The notes under the pieces were generated by a model, which worked only from the letters and a program-made list of their open reading frames with translations, did no database searches and had not been told where the DNA came from. The position numbers and the translations under genes were made by a program. This document shows, in pieces, positions 3,138-38,691 of a DNA stretch of 64,000 bases; within the stretch, counting starts at the first letter, position 1, and each line of letters begins with the position of its first letter. Source of the DNA: a virus (lineage: Duplodnaviria > Caudoviricetes); IMG/VR virus record IMGVR_UViG_2595698868_000001, positions 32,001 through 96,000 of that record, one strand, 5' to 3'.

Positions 3138-3463
3138 GTCGCGAACTCTACTACGTCACCTATGAGGCTAACGACGAACTGATTTTCCTCGTGGGCACCG
3201 AAGACGCCGACGAAGCCGAAGCGTGGCGTGAATGGGTTGAGAGCATCTCCGACGTGGAGGTGTTCGCCGACGTACGCAGCGTTCGGATCGACGACGAGAT
3301 TGACGACACCGCGTTTGCGCTGATCTGCGACGACGATGATGAGCTTTATCTGTTCGAGTCGCTGGAGTCCGCCCGCACCTTCATCTCGAATGAGAACCTG
3401 AGCGGTGCGATCACGAAGGGGATCAAGTTCGGGGTTCGAACTTTCATGGAGCGTCCGCTGTGA
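3134..3463 (+). CDS. acidic hypothetical protein
   Basis: coupled ORF, 109 aa. Confidence 0.7.
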   Translation: MSRELYYVTYEANDELIFLVGTEDADEAEAWREWVESISDVEVFADVRSVRIDDEIDDTAFALICDDDDELYLFESLESARTFISNENLSGAITKGIKFGVRTFMERPL

Positions 3464-25766: not shown

Positions 25767-26517
25767 GCACTCGGACACCGAGAACTCGCTGCCGAACCTT
25801 GTGCTGGGGCAGATCGCCGTCAACACCCATGACGAGGTGCTGTGGGTGCGTTCTGGTGGTCGACGTACGCCAATCCACTTGCCTTCGGTCCAACGAGCCA
25901 TGCCTTATGATGGGCAATCTGGCGCCCCACTCGTTTCGACGGGCAGCGGCTCGCAATGGGACCCACAACTGGCCCCTGTCGCGGTTGTGGATGATGCGAT
26001 CAAGGTTGACCTGCCGCCGGCGGCCGGCTTCATGGGCGTGCCCGGTGTCCAGATCAGTGGCCTTGGACCGGACCGAACCTTGCCCGTAAATTCCGTGCAG
26101 ATCGAGCCGTTTCAGGTTCGATCGGATCAGATCACGGTGACGTCCATGGCTTTCGCCGTGCGTACGGCCGGCGCAGGCGCGGTTCGTATGGGGATTTTCG
26201 ACGCGGACGACAATCGTCTCTTGAATCAGCTTTTCAGCACGCCCGCTCAAGGCGTTAACTCATTCAACTTCAACTTGGTCCTGCCCCGAGGGCACTATCG
26301 TGCTCAACTGTGGAATGCCACCGCCACGGACTTTGCGGTGGCAACCGGCATCCAGACGGATCAAGGCTGGCGGGTGGTTGGTTCGGATTTGCAGTTCGTG
26401 CGCAGCAGCGAAGGCTCCGTCAACCAGAGTAGCGGCTTGGTGCCGATCGCCGGCACGCCGCGTTTGTCCCTGGTGCCCGGCGTCGACAAGACGATGCTGA
26501 TGCGCTGGCATCTCTAA
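25750..26517 (+). CDS. virion protein
   Basis: LPNLVLGQIAVNTHDEVLW motif, same N-terminal module as the previous two genes. Confidence 0.7.
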   Translation: MSIQNKHSDTENSLPNLVLGQIAVNTHDEVLWVRSGGRRTPIHLPSVQRAMPYDGQSGAPLVSTGSGSQWDPQLAPVAVVDDAIKVDLPPAAGFMGVPGVQISGLGPDRTLPVNSVQIEPFQVRSDQITVTSMAFAVRTAGAGAVRMGIFDADDNRLLNQLFSTPAQGVNSFNFNLVLPRGHYRAQLWNATATDFAVATGIQTDQGWRVVGSDLQFVRSSEGSVNQSSGLVPIAGTPRLSLVPGVDKTMLMRWHL

Positions 26518-26522
26518 ACGAA

Positions 26523-26561
26523 AAACGCCGCCCCATGCGTGATCCTAGGGCGGCGTTTCTT
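26523..26561 (+). terminator. intrinsic terminator
   Basis: AAACGCCGCCCC...GGGGCGGCGTTTCTT. Confidence 0.7.
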
Positions 26562-26756
26562 CCGATTTGGGCTCCCTGTACGGCCGAGAACCTCGCCTGA
26601 GTTAATCACACCGTTGGCGCGTCCTTTCCTTCGTCTGTTGCGTTGATGTCGCCGATTGGTCGACGATCAAGACGTAGCCAGTGGGGCGCCGTCTGTCAAC
26701 TCTTGGCGCGCCGGTTTTCTTGACACTGTAGGTTGCTTCGGCTACCCTTCACGATC

Positions 26757-27038
26757 ATGTCTACTGAACGAGTCTATTCGCCGGATAACGAGCCGTTCGA
26801 CGTCACGCCGAACCGCGCCGCGTACCTGCGTCTGGAACGTGGTTGGACCAAGACTCCCTTCGAGCGCGTCGCTGTGCCTGAAGTGACCCCCGCGCCGGTG
26901 TTCGACGCGGATGCGGAAATCGAAATCGAACCCATCGCCGCGCCGGCTCCCGCGCGCGGGCGAGGTCGTCGGCGCCGGGCTGTAGAAGCCGTGCCGGCAG
27001 ACGTGATCGCTGATCACGACGAAAGCTGGCGTAGCTAG
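26757..27038 (+). CDS. small protein with RGRGRRRR motif
   Basis: MSTERVYSPDNEPFDV; architecture resembles 9961..10467. Confidence 0.65.
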   Translation: MSTERVYSPDNEPFDVTPNRAAYLRLERGWTKTPFERVAVPEVTPAPVFDADAEIEIEPIAAPAPARGRGRRRRAVEAVPADVIADHDESWRS

Positions 27039-27169
27039 TTCTACCGCGCTCGGCGCGCACCCTCACATCAAACCTGATCGTGTCGACGGTACCCTTGTGT
27101 CGTCTTTGGCTCAAGTATTCGTACTTCTGAGAGCGGAACTTTATTGCTTGTCGCACAGTAATAAGCCCT

Positions 27170-27220
27170 TGAAAATAAATAGAAAAAGATATTGACCGCA
27201 CACTTCGCAGTGTGTATAAG
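27170..27220 (+). promoter_or_regulatory. strong sigma70 promoter for tRNA Trp/Gly/Gly
   Basis: AT-rich UP element, TTGACC-17-TATAAG; spacer holds palindrome CACACT-TCGC-AGTGTG. Confidence 0.7.
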
Positions 27221-27239
27221 GTCTTCATCGAAAGTGAAT

Positions 27240-27325
27240 ACGGGAATTCCAGAGCGGTCAAATGGGCTGGTCTCCAAAACCAGCGGCGCAAGCCTTCGGG
27301 GGTTCGAATCCCTCTTCCCGTGCCA
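27240..27325 (+). tRNA. tRNA-Trp(CCA) with long variable arm
   Basis: ACGGGAA/TTCCCGT, ctggt-CTCCAAA-accag, V-arm GGCGCAAGCC, GGTTCGAATCC, encoded CCA. Confidence 0.85.
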
Positions 27326-27335
27326 CCTCTAATAC

Positions 27336-27412
27336 GCGTCTATAGTATATTGGTCTGATTACCCTTCGTTGCCAACGAAGAGAGGCGGGTTCGATTCCCG
27401 CTAGACGCTCCA
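27336..27412 (+). tRNA. tRNA-Gly(GCC)
   Basis: cloverleaf, U73, CCA. Confidence 0.9.
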
Positions 27413-27416
27413 ATTC

Positions 27417-27490
27417 GCGTCCGTAGCTCAATGGTAGAGCAATGGGCTTCCACCCCGTGGTCGTGGGTTCGATCCCCACCGGACGCTCCA
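27417..27490 (+). tRNA. tRNA-Gly(TCC)
   Basis: cloverleaf, U73, CCA. Confidence 0.92.
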
Positions 27491-27537
27491 GCTTTTCTTG
27501 CAAGCTGCCAGAAATCCTGTCACCATTCTTTCGTGAA

Positions 27538-27722
27538 CCGGGAAGCCCCTCTGTTCCTCTCTCCGCCCTGGCCGTGCGGATGACGTACATGCGCTCCCGC
27601 CTCTGCTCCCCGCGCCTGTCTTCGGACGGGAAGGCCATATGCCCACAAGGGCGCGCAGGAGTCGTGCGAAGAGGGCGTTGGCGCCGGGCCAGCAGGAGAA
27701 GGCGTTAGGAGCGTCACCCGGC
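27538..27722 (+). ncRNA. candidate ~185-nt rod-shaped ncRNA
   Basis: nested pairings CCGGG/CCCGG, TCTCC/GGAGA, CTGGCC/GGCCAG, CGCGCC/GGCGCG, UUCG loop; promoter-like motif upstream. Confidence 0.4.
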
Positions 27723-27746
27723 ATTTACATCGTTATGGAGCTAGGC

Positions 27747-27941
27747 ATGCACCCCTATTCGCCTCCCACCGATATCGGCCGCACGATCGCCGGCCACGAA
27801 GTCCATCACCTCACCGCTGACTGCCCTCGCAATCACTCGCGCCGCGCCGCCAAGAGGCTACGCCACGCGGCCCGTCAGTACGATCGCCAACTTATTTGTC
27901 AGGAGGTAGCCAATTTTCTTGACGCCTCCCTCGCGGCCTGA
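27747..27941 (+). CDS. small hypothetical protein
   Basis: GGAG SD; ends SLAA. Confidence 0.5.
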   Translation: MHPYSPPTDIGRTIAGHEVHHLTADCPRNHSRRAAKRLRHAARQYDRQLICQEVANFLDASLAA

Positions 27942-27956
27942 TACAAGCGCATCATT

Positions 27957-28022
27957 ATGACGTACCTGATGTCCCTTTACGAACGAGAGGCCCGCCTGGG
28001 CCGAGATACGACCGCCGCTTAA
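27957..28022 (+). CDS. putative leader peptide upstream of tRNA-Glu/Asp (MTYLMSLYEREARLGRDTTAA)
   Basis: ATG just after a TTGACG promoter; stop codon lies in the loop of a long hairpin. Confidence 0.4.
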   Translation: MTYLMSLYEREARLGRDTTAA

Positions 28023-28054
28023 TTGCGGCTTTCGTGTCGATGGCCCTTGCTTAT

Positions 28055-28133
28055 GGGGCCTTCGTCTAAACTGGACTAAGGATAGCCGGCTTTCACCCGG
28101 CAGATGCGGGTTCGAACCCCGTAGGCCCTTCCA
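28055..28133 (+). tRNA. tRNA-Glu(TTC)
   Basis: gccgg-CTTTCAC-ccggc, T-arm, CCA. Confidence 0.88.
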
Positions 28134-28148
28134 AGCCATCCTCACTCA

Positions 28149-28223
28149 GGTGCGTTCGTATATCGGTTAATACACCGGACTGTCGATCCGGGAAGACGGG
28201 TTCGACTCCCGTACGCACCGCCA
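28149..28223 (+). tRNA. tRNA-Asp(GTC)
   Basis: ccgga-CTGTCGA-tccgg, G73, CCA. Confidence 0.92.
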
Positions 28224-28236
28224 AGGTTTCGCTGAA

Positions 28237-28383
28237 ATGCCCCTGCAACAAGGCTCCAGCCAAGCAGTCGTTTCGCATAACATCGCCAAGCTGATCGCCG
28301 AGGGTCACTCTCACGATCAGGCTGTCGCCATCGCGCTCGCTCAGGCAAAGCGCAAGAAGTCGCGTAAGACGCGGCGCAAGTAG
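28237..28383 (+). CDS. small basic phage protein (MPLxxGxS..SxNI..LI.EG...QAVAIA family)
   Basis: MPLQQGSSQAVVSHNIAKLIAEGHSHDQAVAIALAQAKRKKSRKTRRK; below the ORF-track cutoff. Confidence 0.75.
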   Translation: MPLQQGSSQAVVSHNIAKLIAEGHSHDQAVAIALAQAKRKKSRKTRRK

Positions 28384-28501
28384 GATCAAGATGCCCGCCG
28401 GCTAACCTCTCTCCTGATGAACGATTTCCAGGAAGGAGGACCCCAAATGGTCTCTCTGTCAGAGCCTGCCTGCTTCTCTGGATCGTCCAGGAGGAGCCAG
28501 C

Positions 28502-28699
28502 ATGGCCCACAATATCCAGCGCGCGAAGCGCATGCTGTCGCTGTCGAACGCGGCACTTCTTCAGGTCATCGCGGGCAAGACGCTCGCGTCGGCCTCCGCC
28601 CGCTTTGAATTGAAGCGTCGCGGCTACGAAGCCGTCCTCACCAAGAAGGGAGGATGGCACTTGGCCCCCATCACTCCCCACAACGAGCCGGCGCTTTAG
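28502..28699 (+). CDS. hypothetical protein
   Basis: AGGAGGAG SD, 65 aa. Confidence 0.6.
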   Translation: MAHNIQRAKRMLSLSNAALLQVIAGKTLASASARFELKRRGYEAVLTKKGGWHLAPITPHNEPAL

Positions 28700-28898
28700 C
28701 GCCGGCTCTTGAGATCACGCCGCCCCGATGGCGTGACCCCGAGCACGCGCCCGATCGCGTGCGGATCGCGCCTGGAAGCCCCCGCCCAGGCGCAAGCGCG
28801 GTGCCCGTCCACCGCGTCCCCGTTTTGGAGTGGTCAAGCTCCAAACGATTGCGTCCCTTCTTGACTATGTTCGGCGGCCGACATAACGTCGTTCGTAA

Positions 28899-29048
28899 TG
28901 CGGCTGCGCTTCGGCGCGGGCTAAAGGCAGTTCTGGGGGAAGACGGCCCTCGACGTCTTCGGGCGTCTTGCTAGTCGTCTGGACAAACGGGCTGGTGAGG
29001 GGGCGACCGCACTCGACCTCTCCGGTGAGTGACCACCCACAAGTCGCA
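28899..29048 (+). ncRNA. candidate ~150-nt multibranched ncRNA
   Basis: closing helix TGCGGCT/AGTCGCA, two cUUCGg hairpins, TTGACT promoter at 28861. Confidence 0.45.
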
Positions 29049-29263
29049 GGTTCAATTTTCTACTTGCACCGTTCGCGCGGCGTAGCTAGAAGATCGACGT
29101 GGGCCGCCGGGGAGCGGCCTGTCGTGGTTTCGGCCACACAAAGCCCCACCCGGCTCTCCCTACGAATTTTTCTTTGACAGTATTCTTGACACCCGTCTCG
29201 AACTGTGAGAGAAGCAAATCCTCAACGGGCCACAGCGCCCACGTTTTCGCCTTGGATCAGAAG

Positions 29264-29383
29264 ATGACCTTCTCGACGCATAAGCCGAGCACTTTGAAGC
29301 CCGCCACCGGCGCGGCCTCGCTCGCCCATGCGTCCCTTCTGACGCCGGCGACGAGCAAGCCGTCGCTATCACGGTCGCTCTAG
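29264..29383 (+). CDS. putative leader/attenuator peptide of tRNA operon 1 (MTFSTHKPSTLKPATGAASLAHASLLTPATSKPSLSRSL)
   Basis: 35 of 38 internal residues are T/S/H/K/P/L/A, the amino acids of the downstream tRNAs; TTGACA promoter at 29186. Confidence 0.75.
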   Translation: MTFSTHKPSTLKPATGAASLAHASLLTPATSKPSLSRSL

Positions 29384-29498
29384 GACTCCAGTAGTCCTCT
29401 TCAGAAGCGGCCGGATCACCGCCGCTTCTGCTCTCCACGCTTACACCCCAAAGCACAGCAGACGCGGCCCCTCCAACTCGGGGTTCGTTAACCATCAT

Positions 29499-29576
29499 CT
29501 GCGTGTAGCTCAGTCTGGTTAGAGCGCTCGGTCCGGAGCCGAGGGGTCGTAGGTTCAAATCCTGCTACGCAGACCA
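29499..29576 (+). tRNA. tRNA-Pro(CGG), C33/A37
   Basis: C1-G72, A73; loop TCCGGAG. Confidence 0.85.
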
Positions 29577-29583
29577 AATCAGT

Positions 29584-29658
29584 CAGAGTCTGGCCGAGCG
29601 GCTAGGCACCGGTTTTGGGAACCGGACGAGGCGGGTTCAACTCCTGCGGCTCTGACCA
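29584..29658 (+). tRNA. tRNA-Pro(TGG)
   Basis: loop TTTGGGA, C1-G72, A73. Confidence 0.9.
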
Positions 29659-29659
29659 T

Positions 29660-29736
29660 CAGTGTGTGGCGCAGTTTGGTAGCGCGCTTGCTCGGGATGC
29701 AAGAGGTCGCAGGTTCAAATCCTGCTACACTGACCA
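29660..29736 (+). tRNA. tRNA-Pro(GGG), C33/A37
   Basis: cttgc-TCGGGAT-gcaag. Confidence 0.85.
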
Positions 29737-29742
29737 GTTTAA

Positions 29743-29815
29743 GCTGTCGCGTGTGGATTCACGCCGGCCCCTTGGTATGGGGCAGTAGAAGGTTCAATTC
29801 CTTCCGGCAGCACCA
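29743..29815 (+). tRNA. tRNA-Thr(GGT), atypical short D-arm
   Basis: GCTGTCG/CGGCAGC, gcccc-TTGGTAT-ggggc, CCA. Confidence 0.75.
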
Positions 29816-29820
29816 AGTTC

Positions 29821-29890
29821 GCCGATGCTTCAGGGAAGAAGTGTCTTTCGTAGTGACGCCAGGAGGGTTCGAGTCCTTCCATCGGCACCA
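29821..29890 (+). tRNA. tRNA-Thr(CGT), truncated D-arm (70 nt)
   Basis: GCCGATG/CATCGGC, loop TTCGTAG, T-arm, CCA. Confidence 0.7.
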
Positions 29891-29931
29891 GTTTTAATTC
29901 TTGATCCGAGGAGATCAAATGTAGACAAAAT

Positions 29932-30012
29932 GGATCGTGAGCTTAATTCCGGGTGGCCGGGACCGTCCTCTTAAGTCGAGAGCAAGTGGTTCGACTCCAC
30001 CACGATCCTCCA
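29932..30012 (+). tRNA. atypical tRNA-Lys(CTT)-like gene
   Basis: GGATCGT/ACGATCC acceptor, CTCTTAA loop with weak stem, rearranged D region, CCA. Confidence 0.55.
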
Positions 30013-30018
30013 AAACAT

Positions 30019-30108
30019 GGGTGAGTTCTCCGAGCGGTCGAAGGGGAGTGACTCTTAATCACTTGGACGAAAGTCCCACCGTGGGTTCGAATCCCACCTC
30101 ACCCTCCA
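30019..30108 (+). tRNA. tRNA-Lys(CTT) with long variable arm
   Basis: agtga-CTCTTAA-tcact, V-arm GGAC-GAAA-GTCC. Confidence 0.85.
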
Positions 30109-30114
30109 ATTTAT

Positions 30115-30202
30115 CCCGGTGTGACGAAGTTTGGTAGACGTGCGAGTTTCAGATACTCGTGTCCGAGAGGGCGGGGAGGTTCGAATCCTCTCACCGGGAC
30201 CA
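30115..30202 (+). tRNA. tRNA-Leu(CAG), A37
   Basis: class II cloverleaf, loop TTCAGAT. Confidence 0.9.
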
Positions 30203-30209
30203 AATTAAT

Positions 30210-30296
30210 GCCCAACTGGTCGGAATGGCAGACGCAGGATACTCAAAATATCCGGACCGCAAGGTCGTCCCGGTTCAAGTCCGGGGTTGGGCACCA
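30210..30296 (+). tRNA. tRNA-Leu(CAA)
   Basis: class II cloverleaf, loop CTCAAAA. Confidence 0.92.
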
Positions 30297-30303
30297 AGTT
30301 TAA

Positions 30304-30391
30304 CGCAGCGTGGCGGAGTCTGGTAGACGCGCCATCTTGAGAGGGTGGTGTCCGAAAGGGCGGGGAGGTTCGAATCCTCTCGCTGCGACCA
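30304..30391 (+). tRNA. tRNA-Leu(GAG), A37
   Basis: class II cloverleaf, loop TTGAGAG. Confidence 0.9.
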
Positions 30392-30399
30392 AGTTCTGA

Positions 30400-30474
30400 T
30401 CTGGTGTAGTCGAGTGGTTAAGACGCCGCATTGTGGATGCGGAGGCTCTGGTTCAATCCCAGGCACCAGTACCA
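30400..30474 (+). tRNA. tRNA-His(GTG), alphaproteobacterial type (no G-1, U72/A73)
   Basis: ccgca-TTGTGGA-tgcgg; 3' end CACCAGT-A-CCA. Confidence 0.88.
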
Positions 30475-30478
30475 ATAC

Positions 30479-30553
30479 GGGGATGTAGCTCAGGGGTAGA
30501 GCGGCTGTTTTGCAAGCAGCGGGTCGGGGGTTCGAATCCCTCCATCTCCACCA
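30479..30553 (+). tRNA. tRNA-Ala(TGC)
   Basis: G3.U70, canonical. Confidence 0.92.
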
Positions 30554-30558
30554 ACAAC

Positions 30559-30631
30559 GGGGTATGCGCAGGGTCCGCAGGCATCCTTTGCAAGGAAGCT
30601 GAGGTGGGTTCGAGTCCCACATACTCCACCA
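30559..30631 (+). tRNA. tRNA-Ala(TGC), atypical D-arm
   Basis: G3.U70 retained, TTTGCAA loop, reduced D-arm. Confidence 0.75.
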
Positions 30632-30632
30632 C

Positions 30633-30722
30633 GGATGGTGAACCGGTCAGGCGCGCCGGGGCGGTTTCGAAAGCCGAGCGGACCTTCACGGGTTTGGGGA
30701 TCATGCCCTCCGCCATCCGCCA
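30633..30722 (+). tRNA. (8/4) tRNA-Ser(CGA)
   Basis: 8-bp acceptor GGATGGTG/CGCCATCC, 4-bp T-stem, loop ATCATGC, V-arm. Confidence 0.85.
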
Positions 30723-30726
30723 ACAT

Positions 30727-30816
30727 GGAGAGCGAACCGGACAGCCGCGCCGGGACCGATTGGAAATCGCGTCGGACCTTCACGGGTCTGGGGATGGTGT
30801 CCTCCGTTCTCCGCCA
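30727..30816 (+). tRNA. (8/4) tRNA-Ser(GGA)
   Basis: GGAGAGCG/CGTTCTCC, T-loop ATGGTGT. Confidence 0.85.
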
Positions 30817-30820
30817 ACAA

Positions 30821-30908
30821 GGATGTATGGCTGAGAGGCTGAAAGCGCCCGTCTTGAAAACGGGTCGACCGCAAGGTCGCGGGAGTTCGAATCTCTCTAC
30901 ATCCGCCA
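30821..30908 (+). tRNA. tRNA-Ser(TGA)
   Basis: canonical class II, G73. Confidence 0.92.
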
Positions 30909-30979
30909 AATGAGGGTCACGACCTCTCTCGCCTGTCGTGAGCAAATTCAGGGAGGATCGCCCTGGAGCCCGTGTAATT

Positions 30980-31067
30980 GGAGAACAAATCGGCCGGCGG
31001 CCGAGACCGATTGCTAATCGAGTCGGACCTTCACGGGTCTGGGGATGGTGCCCTCTGTTCTCCGCCA
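30980..31067 (+). tRNA. (8/4) tRNA-Ser(GCT)
   Basis: GGAGAACA/TGTTCTCC, T-loop ATGGTGC. Confidence 0.85.
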
Positions 31068-31096
31068 TATTCAACCGCGAGCAAGGGAGCCGCAAC

Positions 31097-31318
31097 ATGA
31101 CGACGATGACGCAATGCCGACTGGAACGCAATGGCGCGGTCCAAGTCGCCTGGATCGAGTCGAAGTTCGCTAAGCCGACGAAGGTCGTCAAGATCAAGGT
31201 CGACGGCGAATGGGAAGACGGGTGGGTGGTCGCCAAGACCGGCACGACCCTACCGGCCGAAACGGTCCAGAAGCGCGAGCGGGACTTCAAGTCACACCGC
31301 CGCGCCACCGACGTGTAA
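31097..31318 (+). CDS. hypothetical protein
   Basis: GGGAG SD; MTTMTQCRL...AWIE.KFAK. Confidence 0.75.
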   Translation: MTTMTQCRLERNGAVQVAWIESKFAKPTKVVKIKVDGEWEDGWVVAKTGTTLPAETVQKRERDFKSHRRATDV

Positions 31319-31321
31319 GGG

Positions 31322-31356
31322 AAACGCCCCGGTTGCGAGACCGGGGCGTTCTTTTG
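31322..31356. terminator. bidirectional intrinsic terminator ending tRNA operon 1
   Basis: AACGCCCCGGT-TGCGAG-ACCGGGGCGTT followed by CTTTT. Confidence 0.85.
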
Positions 31357-31809
31357 TTAGGCCGTCACGCCGTCAGTAGCGGCGATGACCAGCCATTGAG
31401 TACCGGTCCAGCGCAGGATCACCATCGTGGGCGGCGTAGGCACATGCGCGCCCACCACTCCGAGCGGATTGAATGGTAGGAAAGTCAATTCCTGGTACTG
31501 CTGCGCGTTCCATTGGAACGGCTTGCCCGGCGCCGTCTCCGCCAGATTGAGCGTTTCTGAAAGCGCTCGCAACTTGAACGTGGCTCGATTGGCGGTGTTC
31601 GTGCCAGATTCGAACTGAGACGGCAGCGGCAGTAGACGGACGACAATCTCGTCACCGGGCGATTCGCCCGGCGCGAGCCAGCCGTACAGCGTGACGTCGC
31701 TGTTATGCTCCAGGCGGATATCCACCTGACGCTCGTCGTTGCGGTTGATCACCGGGGCCACGGCGTAATTGGTCGCGGCCTGCGGAATTGAGATCAAGGT
31801 AGCAGACAT
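31357..31809 (-). CDS. hypothetical protein
   Basis: AAGGA SD, start MSATLISIPQ within the longer ORF. Confidence 0.65.
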   Translation of the reverse strand: MSATLISIPQAATNYAVAPVINRNDERQVDIRLEHNSDVTLYGWLAPGESPGDEIVVRLLPLPSQFESGTNTANRATFKLRALSETLNLAETAPGKPFQWNAQQYQELTFLPFNPLGVVGAHVPTPPTMVILRWTGTQWLVIAATDGVTA

Positions 31810-31929
31810 ATGGTATTCCTTGGTTTGATGGAACCAGACAACGTCGTCCGGCTCAGCTTGTGTAGCGAACATAACCGGAACATGCAAGACCAGAATGGAC
31901 AGAAATTCTGGCGACGCTAAACTGCGCCC

Positions 31930-32565
31930 ATGACTTACCCGATCGCGCCGACCGCCTTTCCTGAGAACCCGTTCAACCCGGCATGGGTAGCTCGCGATTT
32001 CTTCTACTCCCAGGATGGGATTGGCGAGCATCCTGAACACGCTTGCAAGCGCACCTTCGAGAAGTCCGCGCCGTTCATCTCCGGCGTCCGCAACGCCATC
32101 GACATTGGCTGCCGTGACGGCGAATACAGCCGTTACTTGCAGACTCGGTTCACGCACGTTTATGGCTTCGATCCGCGCCGGCGCGAGTACCTGCCGTTCA
32201 ACGTCGATCTCGGGCGCATGACGCACTTCCTCTGTGCGCTGGGCGATGAGCCCGGTACGATCAAGATGTCTGGAGGTACGCACAATCCGCATGGCCGGAA
32301 GCAGCACTACGCCCCGTGCTTCACCCTCGACAGCTTCAATCTCCAGGATATCGACTACGTCAAGATCGACGTCGAAGGATTCGAGAAGAAGGTACTGATT
32401 GGCGGTTGGGTAACGATTGAGCGTTGCCGGCCGATGATCGTCATCGAGCAAAACGATGTCGTGCTACCGGGGGCCTCGCGCTACGAGGCGCGCGATTGGC
32501 TGGAGCAGCGGGGCTATAGCGTCGCCGCGATCAGCAAGGATGACCTGATCATGGTTCCGCAATAA
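31930..32565 (+). CDS. FkbM family methyltransferase
   Basis: AIDIGC, TLDSF, VKIDVEGFE, RPMIVIE motifs. Confidence 0.9.
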   Translation: MTYPIAPTAFPENPFNPAWVARDFFYSQDGIGEHPEHACKRTFEKSAPFISGVRNAIDIGCRDGEYSRYLQTRFTHVYGFDPRRREYLPFNVDLGRMTHFLCALGDEPGTIKMSGGTHNPHGRKQHYAPCFTLDSFNLQDIDYVKIDVEGFEKKVLIGGWVTIERCRPMIVIEQNDVVLPGASRYEARDWLEQRGYSVAAISKDDLIMVPQ

Positions 32566-32578
32566 CGAGGAGACTTAC

Positions 32579-32809
32579 ATGACCGACGACCAAATCAAGC
32601 ACATGACCGACCGCTTTCTAGGCTGGAAGCTGCCGGCCAACTTCCAACCCGACGCCGGGATCAGCTTCCAGCCCGAGTACAATGTCGAGTTCATGGCGAG
32701 CCAGGGCAAGCCGCCCATGCGTCATGAGCCGGTCGGCACCAACCTGTTCAGCGCCGAGCAGGCCCAGGCGATGATCCGCCACATGCTGGAAGGCCTGCCG
32801 GCCTATTAA
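32579..32809 (+). CDS. hypothetical protein
   Basis: GAGGAG SD; RFLGWKLP.NF.PD.GISF...P.GTNL. Confidence 0.8.
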   Translation: MTDDQIKHMTDRFLGWKLPANFQPDAGISFQPEYNVEFMASQGKPPMRHEPVGTNLFSAEQAQAMIRHMLEGLPAY

Positions 32810-33060
32810 CAGTGTTGACAGGGCTGGCGCCACATGCCAGTAATCCTGTCAGCCAATAGACCCCCTGACGGCGTTCGAGCGATGCGAAGCTCCCGGCATG
32901 CACCGGGCTCCCACAGCATCGTCCCGCCCTCCTGGGGATGCGGCTTCGAGCAGTTTCGTCTGGCCCATCTCACAAAAAGGTGCCCGACGGGGTTGGTGGA
33001 TCACCCGATGCGTACGCGCATCTGAAAACCACCACGAGTTCGCCGGTTCGCCGGCCTTAT

Positions 33061-33186
33061 ACGGGTGAAGCTCTAGGGTTGTCTCGGTGTAGCGCTGCAC
33101 CGGGCCTTAGGTGGGGAGCGCTTCCCATCATGGAGTGCCGGGTCGTTAACCCGGAGGCGGGGGTTCGAGTCCCTCCACCCGTTCCA
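33061..33186 (+). tRNA. tRNA-Asn(GTT)-like RNA with ~50-nt structured D-loop insertion
   Basis: ACGGGTG/CACCCGT, D-stem GCTC/GAGT, ccggg-TCGTTAA-cccgg, GGTTCGAGTCC, CCA. Confidence 0.7.
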
Positions 33187-33310
33187 ATCATAGGTGGGCC
33201 AGCGGAGAATTTCATCCGTTCGCTGGATCAAGAAAAGGGACGCCGGGGTCTTGCCGGCTACCGAGGGCGCGGCAACTGAACCGCCTACCCCACCGCCTCC
33301 CGGAGCTTCC

Positions 33311-34072
33311 ATGCGCATCCTGGTCTTGAGCGATCTGCACCTCGAATTTGGAGCCATGGATCGCAATTGGGAGCCGCCCGAATGCGACGCGGTGATCCTG
33401 GCCGGCGACATCGCCACCGGCGTCGTCGGCGTCATGTGGGCCAAGACGATTCGGGCTCCCGTCTTCTACGTGCCGGGCAACCACGAATTCTACGGCAAGC
33501 GGCGCTATCATCGCCACATGGAGAAGCTGCACGCCAAGGCGGAGGACTCCAATGTCGCCGTCATGCAGAACCGCATCATCCAGGGCGAGATCGCCGGCGA
33601 GAAGGTCCGTATCCTGGGCGCCACTATGTGGACCGACTTTGGGCTGCACGGGACCGAGCATCTTTCCCAGGTCGCCGCCCAGCGCGAGATGAACGACTAC
33701 AAGCAGATCAGGCTCGATCACAGCAAGATGCTGACGGCCGACGACACGCGCAGCCTGCATCTGGAATCTCGTTATTGGCTGAGCGAGCAACTGCGCCAGC
33801 CGTTCGACGGCAAGACGATCGTCATCACCCACCACGCCCCGTCGGAGCAGTCAATCCCTCCGCGTTATCGTGGCGATGCGCTGTCGCCGGCCTATGCCGC
33901 GCGCCTGGAGAACCTGATCTGCAACTACGAGCCCACGCTGTGGGTTCACGGGCACATTCACGACAGCCTGGACTACCGCATCTGCGGGACGCGCATCGTC
34001 TGCAACCCACGCGGCTATAAGGGCCACGAACTCAACAAGAACTTCGATCCGCATCTGGTGGTGGAGATTTAA
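33311..34072 (+). CDS. calcineurin-like metallophosphoesterase
   Basis: SDLHLE, LAGDI, GNHE, THHAP, HGHIH motifs. Confidence 0.92.
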   Translation: MRILVLSDLHLEFGAMDRNWEPPECDAVILAGDIATGVVGVMWAKTIRAPVFYVPGNHEFYGKRRYHRHMEKLHAKAEDSNVAVMQNRIIQGEIAGEKVRILGATMWTDFGLHGTEHLSQVAAQREMNDYKQIRLDHSKMLTADDTRSLHLESRYWLSEQLRQPFDGKTIVITHHAPSEQSIPPRYRGDALSPAYAARLENLICNYEPTLWVHGHIHDSLDYRICGTRIVCNPRGYKGHELNKNFDPHLVVEI

Positions 34073-34074
34073 CG

Positions 34075-34347
34075 ATGAAGGTATGGCGCGTGCTGGGCGG
34101 CGAGGTCAAAGACCTCCAGGCTCCTCAGCCCAAGACGGTCAACGAGTGCGTCGCGCTCTTTCGCGATCAGGCGACCGTTGAGTGGACGGGCGACTACGAG
34201 GATGCGAAGGCGGCCAAGGACGCCTGGAAGGCCCGCGCCCAGCAGACCGTAGACAACGCCCTCATGCGTTTCTTCATCATCGAGATGGACGTCGAGGTTA
34301 TGACGCCGCCGGAGTACGTCGCGCGCCTCCAGGAGCAGCACGCCTAA
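34075..34347 (+). CDS. DUF4170-like alphaproteobacterial protein
   Basis: VLGGEVKD ... AWKARAQQTVDNALMRFFI. Confidence 0.7.
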   Translation: MKVWRVLGGEVKDLQAPQPKTVNECVALFRDQATVEWTGDYEDAKAAKDAWKARAQQTVDNALMRFFIIEMDVEVMTPPEYVARLQEQHA

Positions 34348-34868
34348 TGGCTTACCGCCAAATCATCCCCATCACCGATCCTCTCCTGAGCAAACCTTCC
34401 GTCCCGATCGAACTGATCGACGGTGAAGTACCGCAAGCGATCCTCGATCTCGCCGGCGACATGCTGGAGACCTGCCGGGCCATCAACGGCGCCGGGCTCG
34501 CCGCAGTCCAGGTGGGCGAGCCGGTCCGCATGTTCGTGATGGACCTCGCCCAGATCAACGGCCCGACCATGATCTTCATCAACCCCGAGATCATCTTGCG
34601 CTCGGGCGAGACGATCGAGATGCTTGAGGGTTGCCTGTCGATGCCCGGCATCGGATTCACCCTGGAACGCGCCGCGTCCGTAACGGTCCGCTATACCGCG
34701 ATCGACGGCGAGGAGAAGACCTACGACGCCGGCGGCTACGCGGCGATCTGCTGTCAGCATGAAATCGACCACCTGGACGGCGTTAGGCATATTGACCACT
34801 TGTCGAAGCTGAAGCGTTCGCGCTACATGTCCAAGTTCAAGAGCATGCTGAAAGCACGCTCTGGTTAA
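34347..34868 (+). CDS. def: peptide deformylase
   Basis: GAGLAAVQ, EGCLS, QHEIDHLDG motifs. Confidence 0.95.
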   Translation: MAYRQIIPITDPLLSKPSVPIELIDGEVPQAILDLAGDMLETCRAINGAGLAAVQVGEPVRMFVMDLAQINGPTMIFINPEIILRSGETIEMLEGCLSMPGIGFTLERAASVTVRYTAIDGEEKTYDAGGYAAICCQHEIDHLDGVRHIDHLSKLKRSRYMSKFKSMLKARSG

Positions 34869-34892
34869 TTTAACTCTCTGCCTGGAGTCCAC

Positions 34893-36092
34893 ATGTCCCA
34901 CTTCGCCCTCGTGGTCGTGACGACCACCAACTCGAAAGATCAACTCAAAGAGGTGCTTCAGCCCTTCCACGAGTTCGAGTGTACCGGCATCAGCGATCAA
35001 TATGTTGTCGAGGTCGATGACACCGACGAGAAGCGCGCGTCGTACGAGACCGCGAAACGTCGCCGTTACCGTTCGCCGGACGGAGCCCTGCACGATCCGT
35101 ACGACAACATCTACTTCCGCGATCTCACGGCTGATGAACTCAAGCAGGCCGGTACCGAGAAATTCGCCCGCATCCCAGGCCTGTTCATCCACGACCAGGA
35201 CTGGAATGACGGGCGTGGATATCGCTCGAAGGTTCACTTCGTGCCGACGGGCTGGGAAGATGTCGAAGTTCCCGTCAAGGAGTTCTCCTCGCTCCGCGAC
35301 TACATCGCCGACGAAACGGATCGCAAGGTCATCGTTCAAGGCGGGCTGCCTGACTACGACGATCAGCACAAGCATGGTTACACGATCGTCGACGCCAAGG
35401 GTGAGGTCGTGAAGACGGTGCGTCGCACCAACCCGAACGCCAAGTGGGATTGGTGGGAGATCGGCGGTCGGTATCGCGGGCGTCTTCTGTCCAAGGGCGT
35501 CTTCGGTTACCAAGGTCGGCCGGGCACCTTCAATAACGACACCTACCACCAGGGCGGCAGCGACGGCCTGCTCAAGGGCGAGATCGACTTCGAGCGCATG
35601 CGCAGGCTGAACGTCGAGAAGCACCTGGGTTTGGTGGAGGAGGCGTACGCCAAGATGGGCGACGTGTCCCGCGAAGAAGTCAAGGCGCTCTGCATCGAAT
35701 ACGCTGACCTTTTCAACAAGGTCATGCGGCCGAAGTTCGCCGCGATCGACGCCGGCACCTGGAAGGACGGCAACGTCTGGGAAAAGGCGAACGCCGAAAG
35801 TCCGCGCTTCGAGGAACTCGGCAAGCTCCTCGACCCCTTCTACGACTACTTCAACGGCGCCGGCTTCGATCGTGACATCGGCGATCCCTGGGCCTGGGCG
35901 GAGGCCATCCCGCCGCTGACCGCTTACGCCTACCTGGGTACCGATGGTGTCTGGCGCGCCTCGGGCGAGATGGGCTGGTTTGGCATTTCGTCCAAGGAAA
36001 AGGACTCGGGCGAATGGAATCGCGAGTTCGCCAAGGCCCTCGCTGCCGTGCCGGATCACCACATGATCTGGGTGGTCGACTGCCACATCTGA
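34893..36092 (+). CDS. conserved phage hypothetical protein
   Basis: MSHF..V, NPNAKWDWWEIGGR, GEMGWFG, VVDCHI family pattern. Confidence 0.85.
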   Translation: MSHFALVVVTTTNSKDQLKEVLQPFHEFECTGISDQYVVEVDDTDEKRASYETAKRRRYRSPDGALHDPYDNIYFRDLTADELKQAGTEKFARIPGLFIHDQDWNDGRGYRSKVHFVPTGWEDVEVPVKEFSSLRDYIADETDRKVIVQGGLPDYDDQHKHGYTIVDAKGEVVKTVRRTNPNAKWDWWEIGGRYRGRLLSKGVFGYQGRPGTFNNDTYHQGGSDGLLKGEIDFERMRRLNVEKHLGLVEEAYAKMGDVSREEVKALCIEYADLFNKVMRPKFAAIDAGTWKDGNVWEKANAESPRFEELGKLLDPFYDYFNGAGFDRDIGDPWAWAEAIPPLTAYAYLGTDGVWRASGEMGWFGISSKEKDSGEWNREFAKALAAVPDHHMIWVVDCHI

Positions 36093-36147
36093 AAAAAGTT
36101 TGCCGGAATAGTTGACACGTTTCGGCAAGTGTGAGACACACAATCCC

Positions 36148-36243
36148 ATGATGACCTATCGCAACAACGTGCGCCAAATTCGAGTTCGCCAGTTTAACTT
36201 GGCGGGCCGTTCGCACGTGGGCGATGGAGGCAGCGAGGGTTAA
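36148..36243 (+). CDS. putative leader/attenuator peptide of tRNA operon 2 (MMTYRNNVRQIRVRQFNLAGRSHVGDGGSEG)
   Basis: codons 4-17 are all Y/R/N/V/Q/I/F, matching the downstream tRNAs; TTGACA at 36112; probably leaderless. Confidence 0.8.
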   Translation: MMTYRNNVRQIRVRQFNLAGRSHVGDGGSEG

Positions 36244-36273
36244 GCCCTCAGGCACCATCAAACAGATCGAGCG

Positions 36274-36311
36274 AAGGCCCGCCAGGAACCCCTGGCGGGC
36301 CTTTTCTTTTT
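36274..36311 (+). terminator. attenuator terminator between leader ORF and tRNA operon 2
   Basis: AAGGCCCGCCAGG-AACC-CCTGGCGGGCCTT plus T-tract; 5' arm complementary to 36199-36214. Confidence 0.88.
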
Positions 36312-36364
36312 CCACTTTCCGATCCGAGGAGATCGTCATGAACAACGGCGGGTAACCGCCTTCT

Positions 36365-36450
36365 GGGTAGGCATCGGGCACGAGTGAGCCCAACCGACTG
36401 TAAATCGGCCGCGAAAGCTGTGAGGGTGCGAATTCCCTCCCTGCCCTCCA
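36365..36450 (+). tRNA. atypical tRNA-Tyr(GTA)
   Basis: CTGTAAA loop, V-arm, odd D-arm, T-loop TGCGAAT, U73. Confidence 0.75.
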
Positions 36451-36451
36451 T

Positions 36452-36526
36452 CCCCATGTAGCTGAGACAGAGTAGCGCCAGAGTGAAATCCTGGAGACGG
36501 AGGTGCGAGCACTCTCGTGGGGGCCA
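36452..36526 (+). tRNA. tRNA-Phe(GAA), atypical T-arm
   Basis: CCCCATG/CGTGGGG, loop GTGAAAT, T-loop TGCGAGC. Confidence 0.75.
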
Positions 36527-36534
36527 TTTTCAGT

Positions 36535-36609
36535 GGCAGGTTAGTTCAGAGGTAGAACGCCGCTATGACATGGCGGATGTCGGGGGTTCAATTCCCTCAC
36601 CTGCTACCA
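36535..36609 (+). tRNA. tRNA-Val(GAC)
   Basis: ccgct-ATGACAT-ggcgg. Confidence 0.9.
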
Positions 36610-36610
36610 T

Positions 36611-36686
36611 CCTAGTGTAGCTCAGTTGGTAGAGCAGCGGATCGATAATCCGCCGGTCGCCGGTTCGATCCCGGCCGCTAGGTCCA
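36611..36686 (+). tRNA. tRNA-Ile(GAT), C33
   Basis: gcgga-TCGATAA-tccgc. Confidence 0.87.
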
Positions 36687-36694
36687 GTTTCTGA

Positions 36695-36770
36695 TGGGGC
36701 ATAGCTCAGGGGTTAGAGCGCGCGCTTGATAAGCGTGAGGCCGTTGGTTCGAGACCAACTGTCCCTACCA
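36695..36770 (+). tRNA. tRNA-Ile(GAT)
   Basis: cgcgc-TTGATAA-gcgtg. Confidence 0.9.
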
Positions 36771-36804
36771 AACAAAGGCCGGCGCGGAGATGCGCGCCGC
36801 CTAA

Positions 36805-36880
36805 CGCGAACGGGCCAGATGGGACGGCAGGGGTGTCACATACCTCGATTGACTGTGTTCGATTCACAGGTTCGCGACCA
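36805..36880 (+). tRNA. tRNA-Val(CAC)
   Basis: CGCGAAC/GTTCGCG, loop GTCACAT. Confidence 0.82.
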
Positions 36881-36887
36881 AGTTTCT

Positions 36888-36961
36888 TGGGGGATCGTCT
36901 AATGGTAGGACGGTAGAGTCTGGTTCTACAGATATAGGTTCGAGTCCTATTCCCCCATCCA
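36888..36961 (+). tRNA. tRNA-Gln(CTG)
   Basis: U1-A72, loop GTCTGGT. Confidence 0.9.
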
Positions 36962-36967
36962 AGTTGT

Positions 36968-37041
36968 TCTCGGGTGGTCTAATGGTAGGACATCTGGTTT
37001 TGGTCCAGAGGGTTGGGGTTCGATTCCTTGGCCGAGAGCCA
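36968..37041 (+). tRNA. tRNA-Gln(TTG)
   Basis: U1-A72, loop TTTTGGT. Confidence 0.9.
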
Positions 37042-37053
37042 ACTTGTTCTTGA

Positions 37054-37142
37054 TCTCATGTGGCGGAACTGGTAAACGCACCGGACTGTTAATCCGGCGT
37101 CTCGCAAGAGACTTGGGGGTTCGAAGCCCTCCGTGAGAGCCA
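37054..37142 (+). tRNA. tRNA-Asn(GTT) with long variable arm
   Basis: ccgga-CTGTTAA-tccgg, V-arm GTCTC-GCAA-GAGAC, G73. Confidence 0.85.
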
Positions 37143-37171
37143 ATATGTCGCAGCTTCGGCTGCGGCGAAAT

Positions 37172-37255
37172 GCCCTGGTAACCCGGCGCGCACTACGAAT
37201 GCGCGAGCCGTAGCTGGAGTTGAAAAGGCTGGTTCGAATCCAGCCCAGGGCGCCA
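37172..37255 (+). tRNA. D-armless tRNA-Arg(ACG)-like gene
   Basis: GCCCTGG/CCAGGGC, cgcgca-CTACGAA-tgcgcg, 8-nt linker instead of a D-arm, long variable region. Confidence 0.65.
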
Positions 37256-37259
37256 ACAT

Positions 37260-37337
37260 AGCGATGTAGCTCAGTGGATTTAGAGCGTTCCCCTACGAAG
37301 GGAAGGGTCGGGGGTTCGAGTCCCTCCATCGCTGCCA
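37260..37337 (+). tRNA. tRNA-Arg(ACG)
   Basis: canonical cloverleaf. Confidence 0.92.
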
Positions 37338-37342
37338 ACCTC

Positions 37343-37425
37343 AGCGTACAGGCCGAGCAGGATTATCGTCAGGCGCCGCCCTCCGAAGGCGGAGAGGCCC
37401 GGTTCGAGTCCGGGGTACGCTGCCA
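37343..37425 (+). tRNA. tRNA-Arg(CCG), A37, enlarged D-loop
   Basis: ccgcc-CTCCGAA-ggcgg. Confidence 0.85.
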
Positions 37426-37865
37426 GACATTGAGAGTTGACAGGCATTTTTAGGCAGCCTATATCCTCTCAAGTGAATTCCAAGCCCGCACCGGGATCGC
37501 TCAGGCGATAAGGCGGGCCTGGGCCTCCTGATCGTCAAGCAGAGCCCCCGCGTGGTCCCGGTCCGCGCGGGGGCTTTGTGATTCGGGCTTATCCTGAGTC
37601 AAGGTATTTATAGTTGACAGACAAGTGCCAGGAATCTTGACTCTCCAGGTCGATTCTACTACCGTGCGCTGCATCAACAACGCGTAGCTACCGTCGGGGA
37701 CGAAGGCTGTGTCGGATAACGACAAGGGCCAAACGGTGACCCCCGAGGCCCAAGCTGAAAACCAGGGACAGCAGCGTTTCTACGCGCTGCTTAACGAACT
37801 TCGGGCAGCACTGCGCCGTCCGTCGACGGAGGCTCATACACCCAACCTGGATGTCGAGACCGATC

Positions 37866-38345
37866 ATGGCTAACCAACCGAATGGAGCAGCGCAGGCCGA
37901 TCGCGTGCGGGAGATCGAGATGCGTCTTTGGGAAGAGGTGGGCACCCAACTCAAGGGTGTCACGGAAGCTATGAAGGAACTCGCGCTCGAAATGCGCGAT
38001 GTTCGTGAACGCCTCATTCGTATCGAGGCCCAGGATCAGCCCAAGAAGCTGGCGAGCCTGGAAGAAGACCTGCGCGAGACGCAAGACGAGATTGCGCGCG
38101 TCGAAAAGGACGCAGCGGACGATCTGGCCCGCGCCACGGCGGTCCATCATCAGGAAATCGGCCTGATCAAGTCCCAGGCCACGGCCGACATTGCCCGCGT
38201 CGAGAAGACTGCGGCCGACGACAAGCTTGCGCTCGAAAAGCGCCTTACCCGCATGGAGATGATCATCGCGCCGCTGACCTGCGCCGGCGGCGCCCTGCTG
38301 GCGACGATCATCACGATCTTGGTTCAGAAGTTCACGGGAAGCTAA
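37866..38345 (+). CDS. coiled-coil protein with C-terminal TM helix
   Basis: heptad-rich body, IIAPLTCAGGALLATIITILV. Confidence 0.75.
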   Translation: MANQPNGAAQADRVREIEMRLWEEVGTQLKGVTEAMKELALEMRDVRERLIRIEAQDQPKKLASLEEDLRETQDEIARVEKDAADDLARATAVHHQEIGLIKSQATADIARVEKTAADDKLALEKRLTRMEMIIAPLTCAGGALLATIITILVQKFTGS

Positions 38346-38454
38346 ACTACCTGCGGTCGTTTGCCGCAGCAGCTTCACAATAGGAAGTAGCTTGTGGCTT
38401 CACCAGGGCAAGGGTAGCTTAAACGCTATACCAACGCGCCCTCGGAGGGGACAC

Positions 38455-38691
38455 ATGATTAGCGCCGCTGCCGTTCTGGAATTTCAGGACGACCAAGAAC
38501 AAGAAACGGCGCACACCGCCGACGACTACCAAACGAATCTGATCCGACTGAGTTCCGAGTTTTTCTCACTCATTCAGGACGATGTGACGGAAGAGGGTAA
38601 GCGCCGCCTGGGCGATCTCCACCGAGCGATCGGGGTCGATCTCCAAAAATTCCGTAAGGCTTCCGTCATGGAGGGTCTTGCGGCCATCTAG
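38455..38691 (+). CDS. hypothetical protein
   Basis: GGAGGGG SD, MISAAAVLEF. Confidence 0.6.
   Translation: MISAAAVLEFQDDQEQETAHTADDYQTNLIRLSSEFFSLIQDDVTEEGKRRLGDLHRAIGVDLQKFRKASVMEGLAAI

Follow-up and report, generated by a model that had tools for sequence, protein, structure and literature searches.

The DNA analyzed here is a stretch of 64,000 nucleotides from a virus of the class Caudoviricetes (positions 32,001 to 96,000 of IMG/VR record IMGVR_UViG_2595698868_000001), which we refer to as the window, and the element under study is the short leader of one of its tRNA operons (operon 2), a candidate leader-peptide attenuator. Over this locus, the window shares 95.7% identity with CcrPW, a Caulobacter phage that belongs to the giant siphophages of the Dolichocephalovirinae. 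A promoter is followed by an open reading frame (ORF) of 31 codons, whose ATG lies 36 nucleotides after the first base of the -35 hexamer, then by an intrinsic terminator located between the leader and the tRNA genes, and finally by 12 tRNA genes, the first of them ca. 54 bases past the T tract (Table 1). The terminator stem has 14 pairs (10 of them G-C) and a 4-base loop, with a folding energy of -32.4 kcal/mol. The 12 genes correspond to seven amino acids and 10 distinct anticodons. An original prediction, made from the sequence, had described this same arrangement, and its -35 hexamer and ORF were found at the positions given, as was a terminator ahead of the tRNAs. The 12 tRNA assignments were also recovered by one route or another: ARAGORN calls nine of them, tRNA-Phe is matched by the Rfam tRNA model, tRNA-Tyr adopts a cloverleaf fold, and Arg-CCG is annotated in CcrPW.

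Codons 4 to 17 of the ORF (the codon block) comprise one Tyr, four Arg, three Asn, two Val, two Gln, one Ile, and one Phe codon, so that all 14 belong to the seven amino acids of the operon and all seven are represented, as predicted. This set accounts for 32% of residues, both in the six-frame translation and in the long genes of the window. The 14-residue run is the longest of the set in the six frames of the 64 kb, and among the listed runs of at least eight residues it is the only one that covers all seven amino acids. A run of at least 14 appeared in 1 of 200 mononucleotide shuffles. The stricter claim that the leader samples exactly the codons of its operon stood for nine of the 10 distinct anticodons, each of which reads a codon of the block, and fell for Arg-CCG, which is left unsampled.

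A tblastn search with the leader returned 18 records, every one of them a Caulobacter or Brevundimonas phage. The comparison covered 18 loci, i.e., the window plus 17 relatives among these phages (CcrPW, Magneto, Swift, phiCbK, Ccr10, BL57, BL10, Rogue, CcrSC, BL9, RB23, Kikimora, Gurke, Papperlapapp, Bambus, Marchewka, and Bajun), with 12 distinct leader peptides among them. A pattern scan of IMG/VR for the terminator gave five loci, CcrPW itself and four unrelated terminators, and therefore no new relatives. The leader turned out to be conserved: in all 18 loci the -35 motif is invariant and lies 36 to 37 nucleotides from the ATG, and the frame of an ORF of 31 to 32 codons is kept. Only two indels, of 3 columns each, fall within the ORF alignment, and past the stop codon there are gaps of 1 to 4 columns. 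The terminator is also kept in the relatives, and all of them retain the same seven tRNA classes.

The way in which the peptide varies is informative. We compared the 15-residue block with the 13-residue tail over the 12 distinct peptides, counting each extra amino acid per column once. In all 12, 14 to 15 of the 15 block residues belong to the set. The extra column states within the block were 13 inside the set and 3 outside (13/16; binomial P = 7e-5 at 32%), and those of the tail were 9 inside and 18 outside (9/27), which is the background rate. Replacements in the block are chemically non-conservative, with a mean BLOSUM62 score of -1.27 and 15 of the 22 replacement pairs below zero. Changes that remain within the set and yet are chemically unlike fit selection acting on codon class and not on a folded peptide.

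Because the spacing between the -35 motif and the ATG is fixed, we placed the transcription start at or next to the ATG, which would make the mRNA leaderless or nearly so. Leaderless mRNAs are described as common and efficiently translated in Caulobacter (PMC4117421, PMC8459731). A scan of the plus strand for the sigma-70 consensus found no promoter, a negative result that says little, since it demands a TATAAT-like -10 element, absent from Caulobacter-type promoters.

The predicted fold of the window leader RNA has an energy of -80.5 kcal/mol (z = -5.9), with none of 200 shuffles as good, and consists of three parts: the terminator, preceded by a long hairpin with imperfect pairing and by a small one whose loop contains the stop codon; the first 8 nucleotides are unpaired. 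In 11 of 11 loci the first 85 to 91 nucleotides form a long hairpin with the block as its 5' arm (z from -1.4 to -4.5), and in 14 of 14 the stop codon sits in, or at the edge of, a local hairpin loop whose stem sequences are unrelated. The segments that would compete for pairing lie exactly where the original prediction had drawn them (36187-36192, 36199-36214, and 36271-36285). When the inner helix between segments 1 and 2 (1:2) and the terminator (3:4) were taken together, 97.9% of the alignment cells were paired and six pairs had compensatory changes, a level reached by 0 of 500 shuffles, and sliding the register lowered the pairing to 30 to 66%. The terminator alone gave 99.2% paired cells and four pairs with compensatory changes. 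Thus, the expected covariation of 3:4 was found and extends to the 1:2 helix. For the competing antiterminator (2:3), proposed as a helix of about 15 bp, the window has 15 bp with one bulge and -33.1 kcal/mol. Covariation is present here too and is weaker: in columns 91 to 107 and 165 to 180 of alignment A1, 88.6% of the cells are paired and three pairs are compensatory, a number reached by 18 of 500 shuffles. In CcrSC, BL9, and Bajun, segment 2 carries a G-to-A change and segment 3 the matching C-to-T change.

The three window helices are balanced in energy, with -34.8 kcal/mol for 1:2 set beside the values given above for 2:3 and 3:4. The minimum free energy (MFE) structure of the full-length RNA is the three-part form in 10 of the 12 distinct loci; the exceptions are BL57, where only the inner part of the long hairpin forms, and CcrSC, which folds into a 1:4 plus 2:3 form. 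If the RNA is cut after segment 3, the MFE structure is the antiterminator in all 12.

Table 1. Coordinates of the features of tRNA operon 2 and of the second leader in the window
Feature	Position	Strand	Description
Second leader, 39 codons	29264-29383		Similar promoter ahead (region 29183-29500); Pro/Thr/Lys/Leu/His/Ala/Ser operon
Promoter	36112-36138	+	-35 hexamer 36112-36117; -10-like element ca. 36131-36138
Leader ORF, 31 codons	36148-36243	+	Predicted ORF; ATG at 36148, stop codon ends at 36243
Segment 1	36156-36192	+	5' arm of long imperfect hairpin (putative regulatory codons); inner helix 36184-36192; from MFE folds
Codon block, codons 4-17	36157-36198	+	Putative regulatory block; only Tyr, Arg, Asn, Val, Gln, Ile, and Phe codons
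Segment 2	36199-36214	+	Pairs with segment 1 or segment 3; near copy of the terminator 3' arm
Stop-codon hairpin	36235-36249	+	Small hairpin with the leader stop codon in its loop
Segment 3	36271-36286	+	Terminator 5' arm, also the 3' strand of the antiterminator
Intrinsic terminator	36273-36311	+	Segments 3:4 plus T tract; stem 36273-36304, T run to 36311
Shine-Dalgarno-like motif and 5-codon mini-ORF	36326-36355	+	Between terminator and tRNA-Tyr; stop codon in hairpin loop
12 tRNA genes	36365-37425	+	Tyr, Phe, Val-GAC, Ile (two), Val-CAC, Gln-CTG, Gln-TTG, Asn, Arg-ACG (two), Arg-CCG
tRNA-Tyr	36365-36450	+	Cloverleaf fold: 7-bp acceptor stem, GUA anticodon in 7-base loop, CCA end
tRNA-Phe	36452-36523	+	Rfam tRNA score 30.8 versus gathering threshold of 29 bits
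"Arg-ACG," atypical, 97 nucleotides	37159-37255	+	Called by ARAGORN only
tRNA Arg-CCG	37343-37425	+	Annotated in CcrPW

If such leaders sample the tRNAs that follow them, the codon content should differ from one operon to another, and this is what we found. The second leader of the window has 35 of 38 codons within Pro/Thr/Lys/Leu/His/Ala/Ser and 2 of 38 within the set of operon 2, and the tRNAs behind it are Pro (three), two atypical Thr, Lys, Leu (three), His, Ala, and Ser. Its counterparts also keep to their own sets, with 41 of 44 codons in phiCbK gp083, 39 of 44 in Kikimora, and 32 of 38 in CcrSC gp144. Only the leader of CcrSC contains a Trp codon, and only in CcrSC does a tRNA-Trp close the operon. 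Downstream of the window leader there are hairpins and only a weak terminator-like element; clear terminators are found at this place in phiCbK and Kikimora.

More distant phages show the same correspondence. In the Erythrobacter phage XM05, a distant relative, leader A has 31 codons and the same three-part fold, and 16 of the 17 codons of its block fall within Pro/Met/Val/Ile/Asn/Ala. Compared with the operon 2 leader, it has lost its codons for Tyr and Gln and acquired codons for Pro, Ala, and Met, and it is followed by tRNAs for Pro (two), a Met-like CAU tRNA, Val (two), Ile, Asn, and Ala. BLASTP gave no alignment between the Dolichocephalovirinae leader and XM05 leader A, and the basis for kinship of the two is equal length, position, and fold only. 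The block of XM05 leader B (14 of 15 codons within Lys/Gly/Asp/Glu/Arg/Phe) precedes tRNAs for Lys (two), Gly (two), Asp, Glu (two), Arg (two), and Phe. For the Sphingobium phage Lacusarx, the three expected sets were fixed from the annotation before the ORFs were listed. Its leader B, in the gap before the Lys to Phe tRNAs, has a block with 15 of 16 codons in the set, and leader C (22 codons, 19 of 21 in the set, including Cys, Trp, and His) precedes Ser, Leu, Thr, His, Gln, Cys, and Trp tRNAs. Thus, leader codon content tracks tRNA content, as had been anticipated: across six leaders from three phage groups, each block covers every amino acid class of its own operon, and the cross-table is reciprocal. 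The P values calculated for the six blocks are post hoc, use the window as background, and are indicative only.

Two further elements of XM05 may be mentioned here. Immediately upstream of leader A, the minus strand (2781-3265) matches the GOLLD RNA at 120 bits, below the gathering threshold of 150, and a tRNA-Lys is embedded in the match. The array has a terminator-like hairpin between its two Lys tRNAs and, at its far end, a tRNA-like gene whose anticodon loop carries CUA.

Taken together, the conserved layout, the match between codons and tRNAs, and the parallel change of leader and tRNA content are consistent with a ribosome-mediated (leader-peptide) transcription attenuator gating a phage tRNA operon, which we regard as the likely function of the operon 2 leader. 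Transcription would begin at or next to the ATG of the 31-codon ORF, and codons 4 to 17 would form the 5' arm of the long hairpin, with segment 2 as its 3' arm. When the block is read quickly, the ribosome would cover segment 2, or segment 2 would re-pair with segment 1, so that the terminator forms and the polymerase stops at ca. 36311. Lack of translation would likewise leave 1:2 and 3:4 in place and end transcription. If charged tRNA for Tyr, Phe, Val, Ile, Gln, Asn, or Arg were short, the ribosome would stall within the block and leave segment 2 free to pair with the 5' arm of the terminator, allowing the polymerase to proceed into the twelve tRNA genes. The tRNAs made would speed up translation of the leader and shut the operon off again, and since the products of the operon quicken the reading of its leader, the loop would amount to a negative feedback on decoding capacity. 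The phage thus probably makes the operon 2 tRNAs only when decoding is slow. Such a device would respond equally to amino acid shortage, tRNA under-supply, and tRNA loss and could not tell them apart. An alarm for host defenses that cleave tRNAs (anticodon nucleases) could be an additional role of these leaders.

Several observations weigh against this attenuation model or limit it. The start site, ORF translation, termination, and the direction in which the device responds are deduced from sequence; no Shine-Dalgarno motif was found at the leader ORF, for which a leaderless start is read from the promoter spacing only. In the register of the window, the outer helices of the long hairpin are 71.8% paired, which is the level of the shuffles, and they appear in shifted registers in single-sequence folds. 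Since the covariation count failed, we do not claim these window-register helices as conserved pairs. At equilibrium, the antiterminator wins without any ribosome once segment 3 exists, so the choice between terminator and antiterminator must be kinetic, as in classical attenuators, and the switch needs kinetic trapping. In a static footprint model, segment 2 is both free and uncovered only for stalls with the A site at about codons 9 to 15 or 9 to 16; earlier stalls, at codons 4 to 8, do no more than loosen the lower end of the hairpin, and a ribosome at codon 17 or later masks segment 2. In this model, only roughly half of the 14 codons are placed where a stall would free segment 2, and the codons of the block therefore need not all be equal sensors.

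The codon match has its imperfections as well. Arg-CCG has no codon in the block of the window, and Tyr, Ile, and Phe have one each. The bias toward minor codons in the block is marginal (P = 0.05), for which reason codon rarity was not counted as support. BL9 has a Ser codon within the block, and the last block position is Leu or Trp in the window and CcrPW versus Arg in 10 of the 12 peptides. In Kikimora, Papperlapapp, CcrSC, Bajun, and RB23, ARAGORN finds only Gln-UUG, and the leaders still use CAG. Among other clusters, no leader was seen in the gap before the first tRNA cluster of Lacusarx, and the Trp-Gly-Gly cluster of the window (27193-27240) has a promoter directly ahead and no leader ORF, so that gating would not extend to every tRNA cluster. 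In the window, tRNA-Glu and tRNA-Asp are preceded by a third short ORF of 21 codons (27957-28022; region 27920-28055) that also looks leaderless. It is kept in 5 of 5 phages looked at, with its stop codon in a hairpin loop, and contains two Glu codons and one Asp codon (3/20; 2 to 3 of 19 to 20 across phages), which is not significant.

Some of these points would also suit a leader that is translated and tied to its tRNAs but whose output is something other than stall-dependent antitermination, such as protection of read-through RNA from Rho or nucleases, RNA processing, or a response of the opposite sign. Many block codons lie outside the zone in which a stalled ribosome frees segment 2, and the classical model needs neither the conserved stop-codon hairpin nor a mini-ORF with a strong ribosome-binding motif 3' of the terminator. 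Leader C of Lacusarx, moreover, is followed by a hairpin without a T run. We nevertheless consider such an output unlikely, because segment 2 has been preserved as a near duplicate of the terminator 3' arm and co-varies with the 5' arm, which makes sense only if 2:3 competes with 3:4, and because read-through upon stalling is the direction that yields a useful feedback.

The promoter, ORF, and terminator could instead be a separate micropeptide or small-RNA gene, with a coincidental likeness to the tRNA set and with the tRNAs transcribed by leaky read-through or from an unrecognized promoter. It is true that the unit carries a promoter of its own as well as a strong terminator, that the ORF is listed as a hypothetical protein in some genome records, and that terminated attenuator RNAs are reported to act in trans in an alphaproteobacterium (PMC6614838). 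However, a role in trans would supplement attenuation and not replace it, and coincidence fits poorly with six leaders from three phage groups that each match their own, differing tRNA set with all classes covered, or with replacements that are non-conservative and yet stay within the set. Nor is there a promoter-like motif ahead of the first tRNA: from the terminator to that gene the window has no -35-like motif, and the next one is at 37427. A separate gene thus appears very improbable to us. We give still less credence, in fact next to none, to a leader RNA that senses tRNA directly and without translation, in the manner of a T-box. Terminator control ahead of translation-related genes is indeed what T-boxes have, but the region 26000-38500 has no match to the T-box or any other riboswitch family at E values up to 1, the reading frame, ORF length, and in-frame indels are conserved, and a single RNA would have to recognize seven kinds of tRNA. 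Leader-peptide attenuation is the reading that we retain.

Compared with known systems, the arrangement is familiar in its mechanics and unusual in its target. The enterobacterial attenuators (trp, his, thr, leu, ilvGMEDA, ilvBN, and pheA) have a short promoter-proximal ORF with codons linked to the operon, and some of them sense two to three amino acids. The phage leader shares with them the mutually exclusive 1:2, 2:3, and 3:4 helices and the intrinsic terminator ahead of the structural genes. However, it sits in a phage, would regulate tRNAs and not enzymes, and covers seven amino acids, mostly with one to four scattered codons each and not with runs. Unlike them, it is also probably leaderless, has the extra stop-codon hairpin, and belongs to no Rfam leader family: none of these families (His, Trp, Thr, Leu, etc.) matched in 26000-38500 at E values up to 1. 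The Rfam matches over the leader were weak, below threshold, and to unrelated RNA families: two ctRNA models hit the terminator, and Hrs10 hit the minus strand. In E. coli, the pheM-pheST attenuator uses a leader peptide to control an aminoacyl-tRNA synthetase operon, which is similar in that a gene of the translation apparatus is under leader-peptide attenuation and the supply of charged tRNA feeds back on its own production; it differs in being cellular, in sensing one amino acid, and in controlling a synthetase and not tRNA genes. In T-box riboswitches, the status of a tRNA also selects between terminator and antiterminator upstream of translation-related genes, but they bind one uncharged tRNA directly and have no ORF. 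Closest to the hosts of these phages, trpL/rnTrpL of Sinorhizobium meliloti is described as a ribosome-mediated attenuator in an alphaproteobacterium, whose terminated leader can persist as a small RNA, and so shows that the host class supports the mechanism, although it is chromosomal, senses Trp only, and controls a biosynthetic operon (PMC6614838).

Other features of the region concern annotation and neighborhood. The gene order upstream includes a peptide deformylase gene (34182-34868) just before operon 2, a neighborhood also present in CcrPW, Kikimora, Gurke, Bambus, Marchewka, and Bajun, and a 399-codon gene with its stop at 36092, just 5' of the promoter. Mini-ORFs similar to the one ahead of tRNA-Tyr occur in 7 of the 12 relatives printed and are absent from the phiCbK group (Magneto, Swift, phiCbK, and Ccr10) and Bajun. 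Between tRNA-Ile and tRNA-Val-CAC there is a 7-bp G+C-rich hairpin (36780-36799) that is terminator-like on the minus strand only.

Several of the tRNAs are built unusually. Odd D arms or long inserts are seen in the genes at 36365-36450, 29743-29893, and 37159-37255 (Tyr, two Thr, and one Arg-ACG-like), and these tRNAs escape ARAGORN or Rfam; that of tRNA-Tyr is called by neither. The tRNA that ARAGORN labels "Ile-aat" in Magneto, BL10, Rogue, and phiCbK is an Asn tRNA, given the GUU anticodon loop in the two whose sequences were inspected (Magneto and BL10). Unannotated Arg-ACG-like and Arg-CCG genes lie 3' of this Asn tRNA there, and likewise in Kikimora and Papperlapapp. Matched leaders are also an aid to annotation, having predicted or confirmed odd Tyr, Thr, Asn, Arg, and Met tRNAs missed by standard programs and by the original annotations. 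According to the phiCbK genome paper, tRNAs for Tyr and Thr are missing, and Rfam found no RNA element besides tRNAs (PMC3556154). The published lack of Tyr and Thr tRNAs in these phages is probably an annotation gap.

Our literature searches brought up no report of phage tRNA genes with leader peptides or under attenuation, in agreement with the novelty originally claimed for a multi-tRNA sensor on a phage tRNA array. The terms "attenuat" and "leader" were not found in the papers on the genomes of phiCbK (PMC3556154) and Lacusarx (PMC5648845), whose supplementary gene tables, outside this search, might list small ORFs. If correct, these leaders would for the first time place tRNA genes under leader-peptide attenuation, and they would be the first attenuators to sense six or seven amino acids together, so that classical attenuation would reach a new kind of target gene and respond to many amino acids simultaneously. 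The tRNA genes of phages are usually seen as a fixed supplement for codon usage or as spares against tRNA-cutting defenses, and to our knowledge hardly anything has been established about the control of their expression. The leaders described here suggest a simple and general principle in which a tRNA operon would be regulated by a translated sample of its own codons. On balance, we lean toward a broader view in which most tRNA operons of the CbK-like phages of alphaproteobacteria (those of Caulobacter, Brevundimonas, Erythrobacter, and Sphingobium) may be controlled by a modular "decoding-capacity homeostat," with one leader per operon that would have been rewritten in evolution to sample exactly the amino acids of the tRNAs that follow. 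This would help to explain which tRNAs these phages place together in an operon, and the operon 2 leader would represent a compact and portable sensor of decoding capacity for seven codon families. If this homeostat exists, the phage would gauge the decoding ability of the infected cell separately for each codon class and supplement only those that fall short.

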